Of a DNA stretch of 64,000 nt, positions 40,844 to 63,649 are shown piece after piece. Every line of letters begins with the position of its first letter. The first letter of the stretch is position 1. The DNA is from Desulfobacterales bacterium. Its GTDB lineage: Bacteria > Desulfobacterota > Desulfobacteria > Desulfobacterales > JAQWFD01. Where the stretch lies: positions 69,401-133,400 of the forward strand of contig JAQWFD010000001.1 in assembly GCA_028704555.1 (NCBI GenBank), given 5' to 3'. Below the pieces are notes generated by a model, which worked only from the letters and a program-made list of their open reading frames with translations, was not told where the DNA came from and made no database searches. A program made the position numbers and the translations under genes.

Positions 40844-40919
40844 GCCCCCGTAGCTCAGTGGATAGAGCAATGGATTCCTAATCCATGTGCCGCAGGTCCG
40901 ATTCCTGCCGGGGGCACCA
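40844..40919 (+). tRNA. tRNA-Arg (anticodon CCT), atypical T-loop
   Basis: GCCCCCG-TA-GCTC-AGTGGATA-GAGC-A-ATGGA-TTCCTAA-TCCAT-GTGCC-GCAGG-TCCGATT-CCTGC-CGGGGGC-A-CCA. The T-loop reads TCCGATT, with C where the near-invariant U55 is expected. Confidence 0.8.
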
Positions 40920-40929
40920 CAATTTTAAA

Positions 40930-41112
40930 ATGGTGCCATCAAGGGCTTAAAAGGGAATTCCGTGTAAACCGGAAGCGGTCCCGCCGCTGTAATCGGGGAC
41001 GAACGCTGCATCAGGCCACTGCATGGTCTCAACCTTGCGGGAAGGCGCAGTCAGTAGATTGATCCGATAGCCAGAAGACCTGCCATAGACAACCGCTACT
41101 TGTGGAAATGGT
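40930..41112 (+). promoter_or_regulatory. cobalamin (AdoCbl) riboswitch
   Basis: Conserved core elements are visible: AAAAGGGAA, GTGTAAACCGGAAGCGGTCCCGCCGCTGTAA, GCCACTG, GGGAAGGC, and a B12-box-like AGCCAGAAGACCTGCC. Lies directly upstream of cobT and is followed by a terminator hairpin. Confidence 0.85.
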
Positions 41113-41189: not shown

Positions 41190-42272
41190 ATGGACAGATC
41201 CATTATTGAATTGGAAGACATCATTATCGGGATCAAACCGGTAGACGGGCAATGGATTGAAAAAGCCAGGACGCGAACATCCCGACTGGTGATGCCCACA
41301 CGTGCACTGGGACGGCTTCACGATATATCCGAACGGATGTGCGGAATCTCCCGGACCCTTCAGCCGTCGGTCCGGAACAAAGCCGTCCTGATCATGGCGG
41401 CAGACCACGGAATCGTTGATGAAGGCGTCAGCGCCTATCCGCAGGAAGTCACAGGGGAAATGATAAAAACCTTCCTGAAAGACGGGGCAGGCATCAACGT
41501 CATTTCATCGTATGTCGGGGTTCAGGTCCAGGTGGTTGATGTCGGCATCATCCCTGAACTTGATCCGAATTCCCTTTCCGGTGGAGAAAAGCTCCATATT
41601 GAAAAAATCAGAAAAGGAACCTCGAATTTTGCCAAGGGCCCGGCCATGAACCTCCATGACGCGCGGCAGTCTCTGATGACCGGCTTTACACATGCCTCCC
41701 GTCTTTTTAAAAACGGGACAGACATTATCGGCACCGGAGATATGGGAATCGGAAACACAACCCCGTCTGCCGCAATCGGATCCGTCATTACCGGAAAGCG
41801 TCTGGATGAAATGGTGGGACCGGGTACCGGGCTCGATGACAAGGGAATCATCAAAAAAAAGAACGCTATTTTACGCGGGATTGAGCTGAATCAGCCGGAC
41901 CCTGAAAACGGACTCGATATTCTGGCCAAAATCGGCGGTTTTGAAATCGGGGCCATTGCCGGGACCATCCTTGCAGCAGCCTTCCATCAAAAACCTGTGG
42001 TAGTAGACGGCCTGATTTCAACCGCCGGCGCCCTTATCGCCCACTGCCTCTGTCCGGCTTCCGCAGGCTATATGTTCGCCGGGCACTGTTCGGAAGAACC
42101 CGGTCACAAGGCAATGCTGGCCTGGCTGGGGCTTGATCCCATTCTGGATCTGGGCATGCGGCTGGGCGAAGGCAGCGGTGGCGCCCTTTCCATGACAATC
42201 ATCGAAGCGGCGATCCGGGTCCTTTGTGACATGATGACATTTGACGAAGCGAGCGTAAGCAATAAGGAATAG
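41190..42272 (+). CDS. cobT: nicotinate-nucleotide--dimethylbenzimidazole phosphoribosyltransferase
   Basis: 360-aa ORF with RBS AAGGAGGA. Contains the CobT blocks VLIMAADHGIVDEGVSAYPQEVT and GTGDMGIGNTTPSAAI. Confidence 0.92.
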   Translation: MDRSIIELEDIIIGIKPVDGQWIEKARTRTSRLVMPTRALGRLHDISERMCGISRTLQPSVRNKAVLIMAADHGIVDEGVSAYPQEVTGEMIKTFLKDGAGINVISSYVGVQVQVVDVGIIPELDPNSLSGGEKLHIEKIRKGTSNFAKGPAMNLHDARQSLMTGFTHASRLFKNGTDIIGTGDMGIGNTTPSAAIGSVITGKRLDEMVGPGTGLDDKGIIKKKNAILRGIELNQPDPENGLDILAKIGGFEIGAIAGTILAAAFHQKPVVVDGLISTAGALIAHCLCPASAGYMFAGHCSEEPGHKAMLAWLGLDPILDLGMRLGEGSGGALSMTIIEAAIRVLCDMMTFDEASVSNKE

Positions 42273-56616: not shown

Positions 56617-56664
56617 TGGTGGTCCCAGCGGGGGTCGAACCCGCGTTACCGGCGTGAGAGGCCG
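56617..56664 (-). other. 3' 48 nt of a tRNA-Glu(CUC)-like gene (att-site copy / truncated tRNA)
   Basis: Minus strand CGGC-CTCTCAC-GCCGG-TAAC-GCGGG-TTCGACC-CCCGC-TGGGACC-A-CCA, i.e. anticodon arm, variable loop, T-arm, acceptor 3' strand and CCA. The sequence where the D-arm and 5' acceptor strand should be (56665-56695) is AT-rich and cannot pair with TGGGACC. Confidence 0.75.
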
Positions 56665-56768
56665 AAAAAATACTTTTACCTCTATTTATCTTTATAGCTG
56701 TAAAGCTATATAAATCAAGGACCTTAATCGTTTGTCGTTTATATTGGCTTATCAATATTTACCTTGAT

Positions 56769-56802
56769 TTGTGGGGTAGGTGTGGGGTATAGTGTGGGGT
56801 AG
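56769..56802 (+). repeat. three tandem GTGTGGGGTA-type repeats upstream of int
   Basis: tTGTGGGGTAG-GTGTGGGGTAT-AGTGTGGGGTAG, 26-59 nt upstream of the integrase ATG. The TGGGGTA core recurs (both orientations) in the block at 61019-61223. Confidence 0.75.
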
Positions 56803-56827
56803 AAAATCCAACCAAAGGAGGAACCCT

Positions 56828-57991
56828 ATGCCAGCAGCCAAACGATTTAAGACAAAATATCCTGGAGTCTTCTATACTATCGGCAAATCTGCCAGCGGAA
56901 AACCAGAACGGATTTACAATATTCGGTATCGAAAGCATGGAAAAATGATCGAGGAGAAGGCAGGACGGCAGCTTCAAGATGCGATGACACCCGCAGTGGC
57001 GGCGAGAATCCGAGCAAATAGAATTGAAGGCGACCTATCAAATCGTGAAAAACGAGAAGCTGAAGACGCAAAGAAAGCGGCTGAAGCTGGGAAATGGACC
57101 TTGGACAAATTGGCGGCTGAATATTTCAACGGTAGGCCGGACGGCAAATCTAAAGTTACCGACCTCAACAGGTTCGAAAAATATCTAAAAGCAAAATTCG
57201 GCAATCAAGAGCCTTCTGAAATCATCCCTTTAGAGGTTGACAGGCTTCGAATCAGGTTACTCAAAACCAAGTCCCCTCAAACCGTCAAGCACGTTCTGAA
57301 TTTACTGACCTGGATAGCCAACTTTGGATTCAAAAAAAACCTATGTGCCGGAATACCCTTTCATATCGAAAAACCAACAGTTGACAATCAAAAAACAGAA
57401 AATCTAACACAGGAGGAACTTTCAAAGCTTTTGCAAGTCCTTGATGAGCATGATGATATTCAAATCGCAAACCTTATGAAAATGGCTCTGTTTACCGGAA
57501 TGCGGCGCGGCGAGCTATTCAAACTAAAATGGAAGGATGTTGACCTTAACAGAGGCTTCATAAAAATCGTTGAACCCAAAGGCGGGAAAAGCCAAACTGT
57601 GCCGTTAAGTGAAGATGCTAAGCGGATTTTAGAAAAGCATCCCCGAACGGAAAGCGCGTTTGTGTTTCCGAACAAACACGGGGAACAGCGGGTTAGCGTC
57701 AGTCACTCGGTCAATAAGATCAAAAAAGCGGCCGGACTTCCTAAGGATTTCCGACCCCTTCACGGCTTGCGGCACACTTTCGCTTCTATTCTGGCGGGTT
57801 CTGGCGAAGTTGACTTGTATAAAATCCAGCGGTTACTCACACATAAAGATCCGCGAATGACACAAAGGTATGCACACCTCAGAGATGAGTCCCTCAAGCA
57901 AGCGTCTAATGTGGCCGGGGATATCATCAGCCAGGCAGCAGCTAAAAAGGATGTTGAGCAGGTCGTTAACATAGAGGAACATCGAAAATAA
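56828..57991 (+). CDS. int: tyrosine-type site-specific integrase
   Basis: The ORF track starts at GTG 56780. I prefer ATG 56828, with AAAGGAGG 6 nt upstream. Catalytic signature: R in FTGMRRGEL, HGLRHTFAS, and LLTHKDPRMTQRYAH (nucleophile Tyr). Confidence 0.92.
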   Translation: MPAAKRFKTKYPGVFYTIGKSASGKPERIYNIRYRKHGKMIEEKAGRQLQDAMTPAVAARIRANRIEGDLSNREKREAEDAKKAAEAGKWTLDKLAAEYFNGRPDGKSKVTDLNRFEKYLKAKFGNQEPSEIIPLEVDRLRIRLLKTKSPQTVKHVLNLLTWIANFGFKKNLCAGIPFHIEKPTVDNQKTENLTQEELSKLLQVLDEHDDIQIANLMKMALFTGMRRGELFKLKWKDVDLNRGFIKIVEPKGGKSQTVPLSEDAKRILEKHPRTESAFVFPNKHGEQRVSVSHSVNKIKKAAGLPKDFRPLHGLRHTFASILAGSGEVDLYKIQRLLTHKDPRMTQRYAHLRDESLKQASNVAGDIISQAAAKKDVEQVVNIEEHRK

Positions 57992-58100
57992 CACTTTTCA
58001 GGGGATAGGGTCCGGCTGATCACCGGAACCGACAAGACCGGATAACCTGGCCGGTTTTCCCCGGGGTCTAATACCAGGAGTGCCACAGGAGGCATAAAAA

Positions 58101-58853
58101 ATGGCTACACGTTCTATCTCAAATAATTACCCCCTTCTAAACATAGAGGCACTGAGTGCTTGCGCCGAAAGGTGGGCGCGATATTACCAGTTTATTCAAC
58201 GAATAACCATCCAGAGGACCTATTGCGTTTCCGAAGATATTCAATATGTAATAATTTTTGAAACACCGGAAATTGACGATAGCGACAGAGATTTGGCACC
58301 CTATTTTCATGATTTTCAAATGCAAGTGGCAGATCCCTTTGATGAATCATGCTTTCTCAGGGACTTGAAAACAGTTTACTCCGACGGCCAGGAGCATGCC
58401 GTTGCGGATGAGTGGTATTTTGACCGCATAGATATTGGAGAACAATGGAGTGCCGAGGTCGATGAGAATACCAAAATTATTCTTTATGAAAAATTAGATC
58501 CGCTTGATCTGCTGTTGAAAAGTATCCGTCCACAGGCTGATGAAATTTACCTCGGAATTAAAGAGCACGCGGGTATAGGCCTGAAGGCAGGAGGCGAACC
58601 GCAAATTAAGGAGAAGAGAAAGGAAGCCGCACTCGATATTTACAGAAAGGACAAGTCGCGGTTCCCGGATGTGCGGGAGAGCTTTCTATCAGAATTGGAC
58701 CTTTACGACTTTGGAGACAAGCCACATGAGGAGTTCATCGGCACGCTGCTAATGAAAATAGTGACGACAAGAGGCTTTTCGGAAGCAAAAAACAAACGCG
58801 ATCTTTTCAAGAGATCAAAGAAATGGAAGCCAGGTTCCGTGCCAAAAAAGTGA
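58101..58853 (+). CDS. hypothetical protein (no recognisable family)
   Basis: 250-aa ORF with a strong RBS (CAGGAGG, 7 nt spacer). Acidic N-terminal two-thirds and a Lys-rich C-terminal tail. I recognise no motif. Confidence 0.6.
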   Translation: MATRSISNNYPLLNIEALSACAERWARYYQFIQRITIQRTYCVSEDIQYVIIFETPEIDDSDRDLAPYFHDFQMQVADPFDESCFLRDLKTVYSDGQEHAVADEWYFDRIDIGEQWSAEVDENTKIILYEKLDPLDLLLKSIRPQADEIYLGIKEHAGIGLKAGGEPQIKEKRKEAALDIYRKDKSRFPDVRESFLSELDLYDFGDKPHEEFIGTLLMKIVTTRGFSEAKNKRDLFKRSKKWKPGSVPKK

Positions 58854-58938
58854 ACCTGTTAAATATTCATTAATTCAAGCATGTTATATATTTAGCAAGT
58901 TCACCTCGTGAGCTGTTAAAATTTCTTTACCTATGAGA

Positions 58939-58980
58939 CCCTGTAGTCATTCAGTTGATTATAGGGTTTTTTGTTTTTTT
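58939..58980 (+). terminator. rho-independent terminator after the int-orphan module
   Basis: CCCTGTA-(14 nt)-TATAGGG followed by TTTTTTGTTTTTTT. Confidence 0.55.
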
Positions 58981-59004
58981 ACCACTTAACACGGAGTTTT
59001 AACG

Positions 59005-59202
59005 ATGGATGAGAAATTTGCCAAGTATTTACACGAAAGGGAAGTGTCAGAAATCACAGGCCGGGCGCTTCCAACTCTGAGAAACGACAGACATAATCGG
59101 CGAGGCATTCCCTATTGCAAAATTGGGAGGTCTGTTCGCTACCTACATGACGACGTGATTGAATTCATGGAGAGCAGAAAAATCCAAACCGAAAGCCTGT
59201 AA
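59005..59202 (+). CDS. AlpA/excisionase-family helix-turn-helix DNA-binding protein
   Basis: 65-aa ORF. YLHEREVSEITGRALPTLRNDRHNRRGIPYCKIGRSVRYLHDDVIEFMESR matches the MerR-superfamily excisionase/AlpA pattern (HTH, then K/R-I/V-G-R-x-V/I-R-Y). Stop lies 2 nt before the primase ATG. Confidence 0.8.
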   Translation: MDEKFAKYLHEREVSEITGRALPTLRNDRHNRRGIPYCKIGRSVRYLHDDVIEFMESRKIQTESL

Positions 59203-59204
59203 AT

Positions 59205-61238
59205 ATGCAAGACACTATTGAAGCCTTACGGGCGGCGATGCTGGAAAACGGGATCAGCTGCCAAACTGAAATCATACCGGATGACGAACTCCACAGGTTC
59301 AAGCCAGAGGACCGAAATAATCCTGATGCCTGGTATGTGCTTCACTTGGACGGAATCCCGGCGGGAAGCTACGGGGATTGGAAAACCGGGGCGTCGTTTA
59401 CTTGGTGTGAAAAAAACCAAAGTGAAATGACACAGCCTGAACGGGCCGAGTACACCCGGCATATCGAAGCGCAGAAGCAACGGCGCGATGCCGAGCAAAA
59501 AAAGATCCACGGGAAAGCCCGACAGGAAGCCTTGAAGATATGGGAGGCAGCGTCACCGGCAACGCAGGAGCACCCCTATCTCAAACGAAAACAGGTTCAG
59601 CCTTATGGTGTCAAAGTCGATGAGCAAGGGCGGCTTGTGGTCCCTGCCAGGGATGCGGACGGCAAGATTCACACGATAGAACGGATCACGCCAGACGGAG
59701 AAAAGCGATTTTTGAAAAACGGCGCGAAGCAGGGCTTTTTCTTTGAGATCCCTGGCAGCACCGAAACCGTTTATATCTGCGAAGGATTCTCGACCAGCGC
59801 AAGCATCCACCAGGCAACAGGAAGGCATACCGTTTGTTCATTCGATTGTGGCAATCTGAAACCAGTGGCCGCGGCGATCCGTAAAAAATATCCTAATTCA
59901 AAAATTGTTATCGCGGCAGACAACGACCAAACGAAACCCGGTAATCCGGGATTGACAGCGGCACGAGCAGCAGCAAAGGCAACCGGGGCGGAAGTTGCCG
60001 TTCCTGAATTTAAGAAGGGAAAAGCCAAATTGAGTGACTTCAACGATCTTGCAACTGAGGAGGGGGTTGAGGAAGTCAAGAGACAGCTGGAAAAATCAGC
60101 AAAAGGACCGGATGTGCCAAAAGGTTACAACGCCTCAGAGTTGATGGATATTGTCTTTCCAGAAATCAAGTGGGCCATACCCGATATCTTACCGGAGGGG
60201 TTGAACATCCTGGGCGGCAAACCCAAACAAGGCAAATCTATTTTTGCACTGAACACAGGCATTGCCGTTTCATCCGGGGGCAAGGCATTGGGAAAAATCG
60301 ACGTTGAAATGGGATCGGTTATCTATCTTGCATTAGAGGATACCCCGCGACGCCTTCAGCAACGCTTACGGCAAATGTTACGGCACGGCGGAAAAGCATC
60401 AAATAAACTGCATTTGTTTACGGAGTGGCCGAGGGCGGATAAAGGCGGCCTTGAACTCCTGGAAACGGAAATCAAAAAACATGGAGACACAAGGCTTGTC
60501 ATTATTGACACCCTGGCAAAATTCAGACCGACTGACCGCGGAGCGAATAAAAGCTTGTATGATGTGGACTATCAGCATGTGGCGGAAATCAAGAGCCTTG
60601 CCGACAGATACACCGTCACCATTCTATTGATCCACCATTTAAGGAAAATGGAAGCCGATGACATAATGGATACCTTCAGCGGGAGCCTGGGACTTACAGG
60701 CGCGGCCGATGGCCTGCTCGCATTGGCAAGGAAAACCGGACAAGCGGATGCCGTTCTTCATATCAACGGGCGGGACGTTGAGGCGGCGGAATTTGCTTTA
60801 AAATTTGATCCCGAGTTCATGTCATGGCAGTTGCTGGGCGATGCCGGAGAAGTCCAGGACACGCAAAAACAACAAGCACTTTTCGACGCTTTGAAGGATG
60901 CCGAAGAAGCACTCACGCCAAAGGAACTATCTGAAATTACAGGATTAAATTACAAATATATCACCAAGACATTACCCAAGCTGTTAAAGCTCAACGCCAT
61001 AAGTAAGATAGAGAGAGGAAAATATATATATATGGTGGAGGGTTTAGGGGGGTTAGGGGGTAAAGGGGACATTGGGGGTTTAGGGGGTAAACGTCAATAC
61101 AGCTTCGATTCACCCCGCTTAACCCCCTGGGGGGTAAAAGGTAGGGGCATTTCCAAAGCCAGTAATGACAATGGTCTTCAGCTGAAAACCCCCATTATCC
61201 CCATTGTCCCCTATACCCCAAACGAGGTGACAATTTGA
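59205..61238 (+). CDS. bifunctional DNA primase (Toprim) / RepA-DnaB-like helicase ATPase, C-terminal wHTH-like region
   Basis: 677-aa ORF. Toprim Glu in VYICEGFSTSASI and DxD in VIAADND. Walker A GGKPKQGKS, Walker B LVIIDTLAKF, and the LLIHHLRK block typical of AAA_25/RepA-type proteins. The last ~70 codons run through a G-rich repeat block (peptide GLGGLGGKGDIGGLGGK). Confidence 0.88.
   Translation: MQDTIEALRAAMLENGISCQTEIIPDDELHRFKPEDRNNPDAWYVLHLDGIPAGSYGDWKTGASFTWCEKNQSEMTQPERAEYTRHIEAQKQRRDAEQKKIHGKARQEALKIWEAASPATQEHPYLKRKQVQPYGVKVDEQGRLVVPARDADGKIHTIERITPDGEKRFLKNGAKQGFFFEIPGSTETVYICEGFSTSASIHQATGRHTVCSFDCGNLKPVAAAIRKKYPNSKIVIAADNDQTKPGNPGLTAARAAAKATGAEVAVPEFKKGKAKLSDFNDLATEEGVEEVKRQLEKSAKGPDVPKGYNASELMDIVFPEIKWAIPDILPEGLNILGGKPKQGKSIFALNTGIAVSSGGKALGKIDVEMGSVIYLALEDTPRRLQQRLRQMLRHGGKASNKLHLFTEWPRADKGGLELLETEIKKHGDTRLVIIDTLAKFRPTDRGANKSLYDVDYQHVAEIKSLADRYTVTILLIHHLRKMEADDIMDTFSGSLGLTGAADGLLALARKTGQADAVLHINGRDVEAAEFALKFDPEFMSWQLLGDAGEVQDTQKQQALFDALKDAEEALTPKELSEITGLNYKYITKTLPKLLKLNAISKIERGKYIYMVEGLGGLGGKGDIGGLGGKRQYSFDSPRLTPWGVKGRGISKASNDNGLQLKTPIIPIVPYTPNEVTI
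61019..61223 (+). repeat. origin-like block: (AT)n tract plus G-run iterons and inverted C-run copies
   Basis: AAATATATATATATGG, then GGTTTAGGGGGG-TTAGGGGGTAAA-GGGGAC-ATTGGGGG-TTTAGGGGGTAAA. The exact 12-mer TTAGGGGGTAAA occurs at 61053 and 61080. Then the palindrome AACCCCCTGGGGGGT, GGTAGGGG, and ~40 nt later AAAACCCCCATTATCCCCATTGTCCCCTATACCCCAAA. Confidence 0.7.
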
Positions 61239-61612
61239 AAAATTCGGTCAATTTTTTATCCCGTATGGGGCTATACGTTTCAAATGGCGCAGGGGGCAAA
61301 GGGGACAAAATCAAAATATGGGGCCTGAACCGACTTTCAGCGGATCAGCGGGAAAATGTCGTTGAATATGCGAAGGAACACAAGACAGAGATCATAGAAA
61401 CCTTGAACAGGAAGAACCCCCGTTGTCTGGGCATTGTCTGCGACTACGCTCAATACAAAGAAATTGATGAAATGCCGTTTTGCCTATGGTGTAACCGGGT
61501 TGACAAGCTGGGGCTTAACCTGGCGGAATGCCCTGAAGGCTATTGGGAGAAGGATGAATTGGGATTCCCTAAAAACGCGTTAATGGAAGCCCATAGCCGA
61601 GGGCACCCATAG
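61235..61612 (+). CDS. hypothetical Cys-rich protein
   Basis: 125-aa ORF. TTG start with GAGGTG 5 nt upstream, overlapping the primase stop (ATTTGA). C-terminal half has C-x4-C...C-x2-C...C spacing. Confidence 0.5.
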   Translation: MKNSVNFLSRMGLYVSNGAGGKGDKIKIWGLNRLSADQRENVVEYAKEHKTEIIETLNRKNPRCLGIVCDYAQYKEIDEMPFCLWCNRVDKLGLNLAECPEGYWEKDELGFPKNALMEAHSRGHP

Positions 61613-61702
61613 AATGGCCAATAACCACCGAATCAGACAATTGACAAGCGGTCATACTGAAGGCCGAGTACAATTTATTTAATTTCAACAGGAGATACCG
61701 CA

Positions 61703-62467
61703 ATGAGTAACGTTATTCCATTCAACTACAATTCAAAAGAGGTAAGAGTAATCAAGGATGAATCGGGAAATCCATGGTGGGTTGCAAAGGATGTTTGTGA
61801 CGTCCTTGATATCAAAAACGCGACACAGGCAATAAGCATTCTTGACGATGATGAACGGTCTATGCAAAACATAGGTCGTCAAGGTGAGGCAAATATTATC
61901 AATGAATCAGGGCTTTATGCTTTAATCATCCGCAGCAACAAACCCCAATCAAAACCATTTCGCAAATGGGTAACATCTGAAGTTCTTACATCTATTCGCA
62001 AAACAGGAAGCTATAAAGCGCCAAATCAGAAACCAGCCACTCTCCTACCGATTGACCGGGAATTCCGGGCTGCCGTCAGAATGGCGAAAGCTGCTGGGCT
62101 AAAGGGCAATCAGGCAGTACTCTCAGCAAACCGTCTCACCAGAGAAATGACAGGTTCGGCACCGCTACAATTACTGGAGATCACCCATCTTGAATCAGCT
62201 ACCAAAGAAGCCCACCTGACCCCGTCCGACATCGGCAAACAGCTTGGCCTATCCGGACGAAAAGTTAACAAGACACTTGCTGCGAATGGGCTCCAGACAG
62301 CCTACAGGGATCATAAAGACAGGCTGAGATGGAAACCCACACCGAAGGGCGCGGCATATTCTGTCGCCAAGGACACAGGGAAAAAGCACAGCGACGGAAC
62401 GCCGGTTGTCCAACTGTTCTGGCTCGATTCGGTGCTTGACTCGCTGAAAATGTTGGCTGCTGCATAA
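61703..62467 (+). CDS. BRO-N domain protein (prophage antirepressor-like)
   Basis: 254-aa ORF with RBS AGGAGA. N-terminus VIPFNYNSKEVRVIKDESGNPWWVAKDVCDVLDIKN...ESGLYALIIRSNKPQSKPFRKWVTSEVLTSIRKTG is the classic BRO-N pattern. Confidence 0.85.
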   Translation: MSNVIPFNYNSKEVRVIKDESGNPWWVAKDVCDVLDIKNATQAISILDDDERSMQNIGRQGEANIINESGLYALIIRSNKPQSKPFRKWVTSEVLTSIRKTGSYKAPNQKPATLLPIDREFRAAVRMAKAAGLKGNQAVLSANRLTREMTGSAPLQLLEITHLESATKEAHLTPSDIGKQLGLSGRKVNKTLAANGLQTAYRDHKDRLRWKPTPKGAAYSVAKDTGKKHSDGTPVVQLFWLDSVLDSLKMLAAA

Positions 62468-62522: not shown

Positions 62523-62888
62523 ATGAGCACAGATGATCTTCGAAAACGATACCGGCAATACCATAAAGAGCGTGACCGCCTTTGGAGAGAATACGAACGG
62601 GCTATGGATGCCTTCTGCGCTGAAATGCGAAAACTGCCTGTTCTTGTACGGCTGAAACACTACCACCAGAAACCAGCACCCCCACGTCTCCCCTTCCCCG
62701 ACGAACTGCGGGGCCTTACCTGAGGGGCTAAGACGAGGCGCGGGACGCCTTGTAAAAGAATAGATCTTTTCAGCAACGGACGATGTAAATTTCATGGTGG
62801 CATGAGTACAGGTCCGACATCGGCAGAGGGAAAGCGAAAGGCCGCCTTAAATGGGCAGAAACCGAAACGAAATAAGCGGAGTCCATGA
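62523..62888 (+). CDS. HGGxSTG-type zinc-knuckle protein interrupted by an in-frame TGA (candidate Sec codon, or pseudogene)
   Basis: The 66-aa ORF ends ...ELRGLT-TGA. The same frame continues GAKTRRGTPCKRIDLFSNGRCKFHGGMSTGPTSAEGKRKAALNGQKPKRNKRSP-TGA (62886-62888). The downstream part has no start codon of its own near its beginning. The TGA occupies the position of the first Cys in the CGAxTRxGxxC...NGRCxxHGGxSTGP pattern. Confidence 0.55.
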
Positions 62889-63049
62889 AGGGTTAACAAT
62901 AGTTAACATTTCAGGAGGCCGTACCCGAGGGTCGAGCGGTTATCTGAGGGCATGGTATAGCCGAATGATCTGAGCTACATCTGATGGTTTACGGACAATA
63001 AAAGGGTTACTTTTCTTTGATGATTTCGATTAAAAAAAAGGAGTTGATT

Positions 63050-63649
63050 ATGGGCGGCAGGGGTTCAGGCGCTTATATACGAATCAGCACAAAGCGTACA
63101 ACTGATGATTGTTTGAGTCTGGATATTCGTTGGCTTAAGCGAAACCATTTCCTCACACCGGGGCAGCAATACCCCCTTCAGTGGTCAGTCCGGGGAAGAC
63201 AAATCGGGGGAGTGACGCTTCAGGCCCATGAGAATCACGCCGTTTTGCTGTATCGCTATCGAAGGAACGGTGTGGGCGATTGGGAGGACGTTCAGCAGCG
63301 GATCAACTTCACATGGACACATTGCCACTATGGAGGGCAGCGGCGGTGGTTTATCTGCCCCTTCTGTTCGAGGCGCGTAGCGATCCTGTACGGTCCGGGA
63401 AGGCATTTTGCTTGCCGGGATTGTTATAATTTATCGTACGAATCGCAGAGGGAAACCCGCCCTTCCAGGATGTACCGAAAAGCCAGCAAGATTCGGGAGC
63501 GGCTGGGAGCGAGTCCTGCCCCCATAGACCCGATTTTTTCAAAACCAAAAGGGATGCACTATAAAACATTCAGATGGCTCAAGCTTCACGCAGAATTGCT
63601 GGAAGAACGTGCATTGCTGGATGGATACAGGATGCTGAAGCTTAGATAA
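63050..63649 (+). CDS. hypothetical Zn-ribbon protein
   Basis: The ORF track starts at TTG 63017. I prefer ATG 63050, with AAGGAG 7 nt upstream. Contains CPFCSRRVAILYGPGRHFACRDCYNLSYESQRE (C-x2-C...C-x2-C). From memory, the pattern recurs in mobile-element proteins of unknown function. Confidence 0.6.
   Translation: MGGRGSGAYIRISTKRTTDDCLSLDIRWLKRNHFLTPGQQYPLQWSVRGRQIGGVTLQAHENHAVLLYRYRRNGVGDWEDVQQRINFTWTHCHYGGQRRWFICPFCSRRVAILYGPGRHFACRDCYNLSYESQRETRPSRMYRKASKIRERLGASPAPIDPIFSKPKGMHYKTFRWLKLHAELLEERALLDGYRMLKLR

Follow-up and report, generated by a model that had tools for sequence, protein, structure and literature searches.

Gene content of the locus

The window analyzed here, the whole 64,000-nucleotide (nt) stretch of DNA from a Desulfobacterales metagenome-assembled genome (MAG), contains a block of seven co-oriented genes arranged in the order integrase, unknown ORF, HTH_17 protein, Toprim+AAA_25 protein, unknown ORF, Bro-N protein, and, as the seventh, a gene for a protein with an HGGxSTG domain. 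The features upstream of this last gene are as follows.

56617 to 56685, minus strand: tRNA-like 3′ fragment ending in ...GGTTCGACCCCCGCTGGGACCACCA, a candidate attachment-site remnant about 100 nt left of the integrase
56780 to 57991, plus strand: tyrosine integrase (Phage_integrase, E value of 5e-35), at the left end of the predicted integrated element
59005 to 59202, plus strand: small DNA-binding protein (HTH_17), read as AlpA/excisionase-like
59205 to 61238, plus strand: Toprim + AAA_25 protein, the predicted primase/helicase-type replication gene of the element
61703 to 62467, plus strand: Bro-N domain protein, immediately upstream of the predicted selenoprotein gene

Judged by its predicted gene content, an integrase together with a replication and regulation module, the block starting at 56780 is an integrated mobile element, the right end of which lies beyond the window. 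The first-pass annotation had placed the HGGxSTG gene in a mobile element, and the co-oriented integrase, HTH_17, Toprim+AAA_25, and Bro-N genes upstream of it (56780 to 62467) bear this out. The tRNA-like fragment on the minus strand yielded a sub-threshold match to the Rfam tRNA family (21.9 bits) and no ARAGORN call, and it may represent the att-site remnant of the integrated element. Its sequence (...GCGGGTTCGACCCCCGCTGGGACCACCA), with a long variable-arm-like stretch and an A before the CCA, suggests a class II tRNA such as Leu. In other genomes, the gene was found downstream of a DUF927 protein (Desulfovibrio piger) and of a helicase (Desulfocicer). Just downstream of the gene in the window, an ORF of 200 residues (63047 to 63649, plus strand) carries CPFC...CRDC motifs and is zinc ribbon-like, with no Pfam or PHROG match. 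Elsewhere in the window, a cobalamin riboswitch (40914 to 41101, plus strand, 107 bits) directly follows tRNA-Arg(CCT) and lies upstream of an ORF at 41190 to 42272.

The seventh gene was deposited in GenBank as a hypothetical protein (PHP23_02040), and only the 66 codons between the ATG at 62523 and the first in-frame TGA at 62721 to 62723 are annotated. The frame remains open for 54 codons beyond this TGA, up to a second TGA at 62886 to 62888, and encodes GAKTRRGTPCKRIDLFSNGRCKFHGGMSTGPTSAEGKRKAALNGQKPKRNKRSP. The parts of the extended gene are listed below.

62523 to 62888, plus strand: full predicted selenoprotein gene, 121 codons with selenocysteine (Sec) at codon 67, plus the true TGA stop
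62721 to 62723, plus strand: candidate Sec codon, an in-frame TGA aligned to the first conserved Cys of the HGGxSTG domain (profile position 1)
62721 to 62834, plus strand: HGGxSTG domain (NF041373), U-x9-C-x10-C-x2-H-G-G-x-S-T-G, followed by a basic tail that extends to 62885
62886 to 62888, plus strand: true stop, also TGA; homologues end at the same place

The only in-frame start codon 3′ of the first TGA is the ATG within HGGM. Because no in-frame start lies between the TGA and this methionine, the HGGxSTG domain cannot be expressed separately. The NCBI MAG assembly GCA_028684125.1 and the Logan assembly of SRR22315502 contain the DNA of the locus without any difference. All the coordinates of the first-pass annotation (a 66-codon ORF, the TGA, and 54 further open codons) therefore proved correct, as did its statement that the downstream half lacks a start codon of its own, the first one being located inside HGGM. 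It had also raised the possibility of a TGC or TGT codon at this site; at the level of the two assemblies, the codon is TGA.

The HGGxSTG domain and its TGA-bearing relatives

The part of the gene downstream of the TGA, searched alone, matched the NCBIfam model NF041373 (HGG_STG) with an E value of 5e-16 and 58.1 bits, well beyond the curated cutoff of 29, over profile positions 2 to 38 of 38. When Cys was put at the TGA, the match rose to 59.2 bits and covered positions 1 to 38 of 38. Since the match thus extends to position 1, the TGA corresponds to the first conserved Cys. Alignments of 29 and 115 homologues agreed with this assignment, with Cys in the TGA column of all the Cys-type sequences. 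The pattern in the window gene is U-x9-C-x10-C-x2-HGGMSTG, and the residues C, C, C, H, G, G, S, and G are invariant among the 115 homologues. Both the proposal that the gene encodes an HGGxSTG-domain protein and the proposal that its TGA sits on the first conserved Cys were thereby upheld.

The C-x9-C-x10-C-x2-H pattern suggests that the invariant C, C, C, and H residues probably form a zinc knuckle and bind a metal. The AlphaFold (AF2) model of a Cys homologue (P0004), a confident one with a pLDDT of 91, shows a long helix at the N terminus and a short one at the C terminus, together with an irregular knuckle, and this homologue had no match in the PDB either by sequence or by Foldseek. The basic tail is predicted to bind nucleic acid. 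Considering this tail and the position beside replication genes, the protein is probably a small nucleic acid-binding factor of the element.

Approximately 130 homologues share the whole architecture and carry Cys in the TGA column. The exception is the closest full-length homologue (P0002, 57 % identity), which was deposited with Trp at this position; its DNA (L001) contains TGA at the identical codon. In the ENA gene calls, the Sec-type TGA was translated as Trp in both P0002 (L001 421-960) and P0121, as in a code 4-type call, and the call for P0002 also read through the true TGA stop into about 55 nonhomologous residues. Such calls hide selenoprotein genes as 'W' variants. Downstream of the TGA, the window gene and L001 differ at saturated synonymous sites (pS of 0.78 to 0.84), with a low pN of 0.18 to 0.23; therefore, the downstream codons have been translated throughout a long divergence. 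Among 35 sequences that are distinct over 99 nt, pN/pS downstream of the TGA is 0.26.

Further relatives were collected with a TGA-specific nucleotide pattern, in which the TGA and the protein-determined bases were fixed and codons +5, +6, and +8 as well as all third positions were left free. In metagenome contigs, this pattern retrieved 47 loci, in each of which the TGA is in frame, the upstream ORF is open and carries the conserved motif, and the HGGxSTG domain is intact and ends at the usual position. Among species-representative genomes there were five matches, and 5/5 belong to Desulfobacterota: D. piger ATCC 29098, two Desulfovibrio MAGs, a Desulfobacterium MAG, and Desulfocicer vacuolatum DSM 3385. 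Among the named genomes matched, the TGA form is thus restricted to Desulfobacterota. The Cys forms are widespread and occur, for example, in Pseudomonas, Burkholderia, Crenobacter, and Pelobacter. Viral contigs yielded no TGA forms versus at least 157 Cys forms (at least 120 with TGC and 37 with TGT).

Altogether, TGA occupies the same codon in 27 distinct sequences, the domains of which are as little as 62 to 74 % identical, and many of these sequences come from human-gut metagenomes. In the window gene and in all 54 TGA loci, the TGA is at profile position 1 and Cys is kept at position 11. The N-terminal parts range from 13 residues (in Desulfocicer, MKQTREEIQQKDY-U-...) to more than 138, and the domain is constant. 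Sec and Cys forms are interleaved within subfamilies, as illustrated by L031 (Sec) and P0207 (Cys), which have domains of 93 % identity and the same 13-residue N terminus. Like the window gene, most of the relatives end at TGA.

Two contigs of the set deserve separate mention. In L216 (134-430, protein P0122), which belongs to the gut clade, CGA (Arg) replaces the TGA upstream of an intact AGG GCC GGG ACG CCC TGC hairpin; the T has either changed recently to C or been misread in the sequencing of this 1.6-kb contig. A TGA form from a human-gut contig with a coverage of 1.7 (L048) is frameshifted after ...HGGLSTGPK and represents either a low-coverage error or a decayed copy.

The hairpin downstream of the TGA

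A potential stem-loop structure begins 9 nt after the TGA of the window gene.

62733 to 62753, plus strand: SECIS-like hairpin; stem 62733-62740 / 62746-62753 of 8 bp with one G-U pair, loop CGGGA at 62741-62745

The two arms are ACGAGGCG (62733 to 62740) and CGCCTTGT (62746 to 62753), exactly the structure that the first-pass annotation had described. In a 45-nt context, the region folds with a minimum free energy (MFE) of −12.3 kcal/mol and a z score of −2.73 relative to dinucleotide shuffles, none of 200 shuffles being as good. The hairpin alone has −11.0 kcal/mol, its loop starts 17 nt after the UGA, and G occupies loop position 2. In the MFE fold, it is adjoined by a second small hairpin (62754 to 62770, plus strand; AAAAGA-AUAGA-UCUUUU), which is found in the window only and not in the relatives.

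The bacterial SECIS (bSECIS) model of Zhang and Gladyshev (2005), as quoted in PMC13188914, comprises a loop of 3 to 9 nt, an upper stem of 4 to 16 bp, a G in the first two loop positions, a UGA-to-loop distance of 16 to 37 nt, and an MFE of −7.5 kcal/mol or lower (PMC13188914). The window hairpin, with 8 bp, the 5-nt loop CGGGA, a spacing of 17 nt, and −11.0 kcal/mol, lies within all these limits, in line with the earlier suggestion that its loop falls within the bacterial SECIS range. In a strict test confined to the hairpin, 15/29 Sec forms passed the model as compared with 7/123 Cys forms (Fisher 3e-8). When flanking pairs were allowed, 27/29 TGA sequences passed, 23 of them with a spacing of 17 nt and a 6-nt loop; this permissive version discriminates weakly, as 48 % of the Cys controls pass it too. 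The consensus hairpin, present in 23/29 sequences, has a 6-bp stem and a 6-nt loop at a spacing of 17 nt. A hairpin recurs at the same place in the TGA-bearing relatives that the first-pass annotation had proposed to collect.

Codon usage in this region differs between the two types of genes. The string AGG GCC GGG ACG CCC TGC makes up codons +5 to +10 after the TGA in 21 to 24 of the 26 distinct TGA sequences; on either side, at codons +1 to +4 and from +11 on, synonymous positions vary freely. Among the Cys forms, all synonymous codons are used at +5 to +10, and the same nucleotide string occurs in 0/18 Cys forms that encode the identical peptide, RAGTPC. Among the TGA forms, pS falls from 0.54 in the spacer to 0.15 in the hairpin codons and is back at 0.58 over the remainder of the domain. 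The diversity of codons for the same residue at +5 to +9 is 0 to 0.27 in the TGA forms versus 0.69 to 0.80 in the Cys forms.

The consensus folds as C-AGGGC / CGGGAC / GCCCU-G, with the stem and the loop starting 11 and 17 nt, respectively, after the UGA. The window gene departs from this consensus at several positions (ACG AGG CGC GGG ACG CCU UGU); combined, the changes yield the 8-bp stem, shifted in register by one but with its loop starting at the same point. Further stem variants, with several changes each that again restore a hairpin, were observed in L017 and L053, in which the loops are 19 and 18 nt from the UGA, respectively. Strict two-sided counting detected no covariation in the main-register helix because the stem is nearly invariant; therefore, the argument for an RNA element rests on synonymous-site conservation and on the register-shifted variants. 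When compared with dinucleotide shuffles of its GC-rich context, the consensus hairpin exhibited no extra stability (z scores of −0.49 and +0.16), and neither the window region nor the D. piger locus, scanned against Rfam, matched a SECIS or any other credible family.

Of three matched Cys genes, two lack the hairpin and one, L214, keeps a related structure. This Cys-type gene (L214 1444-1839, P0135) comes from the same JGI sample as the Sec-type L039 and has a domain that is 93 % identical to it. Its hairpin after the TGC (ACAAGG...CCUUGU, −10.1 kcal/mol) may reflect a recent intermediate, either Sec-to-Cys or Cys-to-Sec.

Decoding of the TGA and relation to known systems

Collectively, we consider it likely, with a probability of roughly 0.85, that the region from 62523 to 62888 encodes one protein of 121 residues in which the UGA at codon 67 is decoded as Sec. 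Sec insertion is by far the likeliest reading because UGA and Cys correspond at the site, because the loop has the expected position and G content, because the TGA form is restricted to Sec-using Desulfobacterota, and because D. piger possesses selA-D and a [NiFeSe] hydrogenase. Indeed, D. piger ATCC 29098, one of the carriers of the TGA form, encodes selA-D together with a Sec-containing [NiFeSe] hydrogenase (PMC4730141), and according to the literature Desulfobacterales are among the most selenoprotein-rich bacteria. We infer the identity of the inserted residue, the dependence on SelB, and the incorporation of selenium from these comparisons of sequences. In the proposed mechanism, once the UGA reaches the ribosomal A site, the hairpin starting 9 to 11 nt downstream would present its G-rich apical loop (from 17 nt), and the Sec-specific elongation factor SelB would bind this loop and bring Sec-tRNA(Sec). 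The product would contain a U-x9-C-x10-C-x2-H knuckle in which one of the four probable metal ligands, the first, is Sec; if selenium or SelB were lacking, translation would yield no more than the N-terminal fragment of 66 residues.

The only serious rival, which we nevertheless regard as improbable, is recoding independent of a SECIS element, in which a near-cognate or suppressor tRNA (Trp, Cys, Arg, or Gly) would read the UGA and the hairpin would act as a generic stimulator of readthrough, with no involvement of selenium. The selection on the downstream codons and the conserved hairpin prove that translation continues past the UGA but do not prove which residue is inserted, a single contig carries CGA (Arg) in place of the TGA next to an intact hairpin, and the 64-kb window of this MAG holds no Sec machinery: neither sel genes nor tRNA-Sec (ARAGORN), nor any other selenoprotein or TGA-split gene, was found within it. 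Yet such recoding leaves several regularities aside. The five named genomes with the TGA form are all Sec-using Desulfobacterota and none comes from the many Proteobacteria with Cys forms, the UGA replaces Cys in the classic Sec/Cys pairing, the position and G content of the loop match the criteria for a SelB-type SECIS, and Sec has been predicted independently at another Cys of this family. The option of Sec insertion or readthrough given in the first-pass annotation is thus supported by the TGA in the Cys column, by TGA-bearing relatives with the hairpin, and by purifying selection downstream, and within this option Sec insertion is preferred.

The same purifying selection 3′ of the TGA contradicts the other possibility that the annotation had offered, namely, that a recent TGY-to-TGA nonsense mutation turned a Cys-type HGGxSTG gene into a pseudogene, the frame of which is still open pending decay. 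Such a change requires a single transversion, GenBank annotates just the 66-codon ORF, and one gut-clade copy is frameshifted; nevertheless, a pseudogene is the least credible of the readings considered, as the TGA recurs at the same codon in 27 distinct sequences with saturated synonymous sites and a downstream pN/pS of about 0.26, a TGA-specific nucleotide element follows the codon, and in Desulfocicer and related forms, with 13 codons before the TGA, the whole domain depends on decoding it. Only marginally more credible, and still very improbable, is the view that the locus makes two products, a functional 66-residue peptide and an HGGxSTG part that is reinitiated or not made at all, or that TGA is a sense codon in the genetic code of the host. 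The rendering of TGA as Trp by the ENA callers in P0002 and P0121 might favor a sense codon, but the same callers overran a true TGA stop into nonhomologous sequence, and TGA terminates 15/39 long ORFs in the window, the window gene itself, and most of its relatives. Two products are difficult to reconcile with the lack of a start codon between the TGA and the HGGM methionine and with a constant domain preceded by N-terminal parts of anything from 13 to more than 138 residues. Like the pseudogene, an alternative genetic code, TGA being a common stop here, and a sequencing error, given two identical assemblies and 53 other loci with the same codon, are excluded to the extent that sequence analysis permits. 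The reading as Sec therefore remains the preferred one, and under it the annotation is corrected: the database entry is a hypothetical protein of just 66 residues, and the relatives were truncated, wholly missed, or mistranslated with Trp.

The canonical example of SelB/SECIS-dependent recoding in bacteria is fdhF of Escherichia coli. As in the canonical system, the stem-loop described here lies in the coding sequence just 3′ of the UGA and has G at loop positions 2 and 3; the stem of the minimal fdhF element begins 11 nt after the UGA, the same distance as in our consensus. The spacing of 17 nt is within the 16 to 37 nt of the canonical bSECIS model, and the MFE is below its limit of −7.5 kcal/mol. 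In contrast to fdhF, the stem is short (5 to 8 bp), there is no bulged U, the sequence is unrelated, and the SECIS role is a predicted one. Sec is an unusual ligand for a structural metal site. A precedent for Sec at a Cys of a small CxxC_CxxC-type protein, rather than in a classical redox enzyme, is provided by the FmdB-family selenoproteins (TIGR02605, U/CxxU), which we read as zinc ribbons; their fold and motif are unrelated to those of the HGGxSTG domain, and the passages that describe them mention no mobile-element context.

The HGGxSTG family itself is not new as a selenoprotein family, as GOS_A, a 'Hypothetical protein' family, was predicted earlier from Global Ocean Sampling data (Zhang and Gladyshev 2008, PLoS Genet, PMC2398784, Dataset S2). 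The GOS_A read ...NRCGAKTRSGEPUAKFLIEGKRRCRLHGGLSTGPKT... matched NF041373 with an E value of 5.2e-18 over profile positions 1 to 38. GOS_A resembles the present form in having the HGGxSTG domain and a Sec/Cys pair at a conserved Cys, with 155 Cys homologues in GOS, but its Sec is at the second Cys (position 11, ...GEPU...), whereas that of the window gene is at the first (position 1). Since the UGA and the SECIS are consequently placed differently, the two must have separate origins. No Sec at the second Cys, as in GOS_A, was found in viral contigs. GOS_A was based on two marine reads from one station, compared with 27 distinct sequences, cultured hosts, and a mobile-element context for the present form; a 2022 review lists it with no domain, motif, or accession, and it is absent from a 2026 family table that includes the models NF041372 and NF041374. 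Both these models represent published selenoprotein families, and NF041373 is numbered between them; judged by this accession numbering, NF041373 was probably built from GOS_A. Neither its name nor the 2026 review table links the model to selenium.

A literature search for 'HGGxSTG' retrieved no mention, and a homology search with the D. piger sequence, in a database that may not hold U-containing entries, returned no full-length annotated product. Sec at the first Cys with a SECIS of its own, restricted to mobile elements of Desulfobacterota, looks undescribed. The GOS_A/HGGxSTG family, which had rested on two marine reads and was dropped from current catalogues, is thereby revived and extended. 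The Sec form occurs in two cultured strains, D. piger ATCC 29098, a sulfate reducer common in the human gut, and D. vacuolatum DSM 3385, so that selenium incorporation is directly testable; its UGA and SECIS would also serve as a compact natural cassette of just 33 nt. A tiny knuckle encoded by mobile elements, with Sec where a metal ligand is probable, falls outside the usual picture of redox enzymes. A broader view, speculative and as a whole rather unlikely, is that this mobile-element selenoprotein uses Sec as a ligand of a structural metal, that the host's Sec machinery and selenium gate the element, and that the knuckle was converted independently twice, at Cys1 here and at Cys2 in GOS_A. 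If this were true, the HGGxSTG factor of the element would depend on the Sec machinery and selenium of its host, which could serve as a gate on host range or selenium status.

Among the closest known counterparts are also the Cys-type HGGxSTG proteins (NF041373) themselves. They share with the predicted selenoprotein the domain sequence and length, the helical N-terminal part, the Pro-rich linker with the P-x-E-L-R-G-L-T motif, the knuckle, and the basic tail, and they too are located in mobile elements or prophages. What sets the two forms apart is the codon for the first ligand, which is UGY in the Cys-type genes and here UGA, accompanied by the conserved hairpin within codons +5 to +10.
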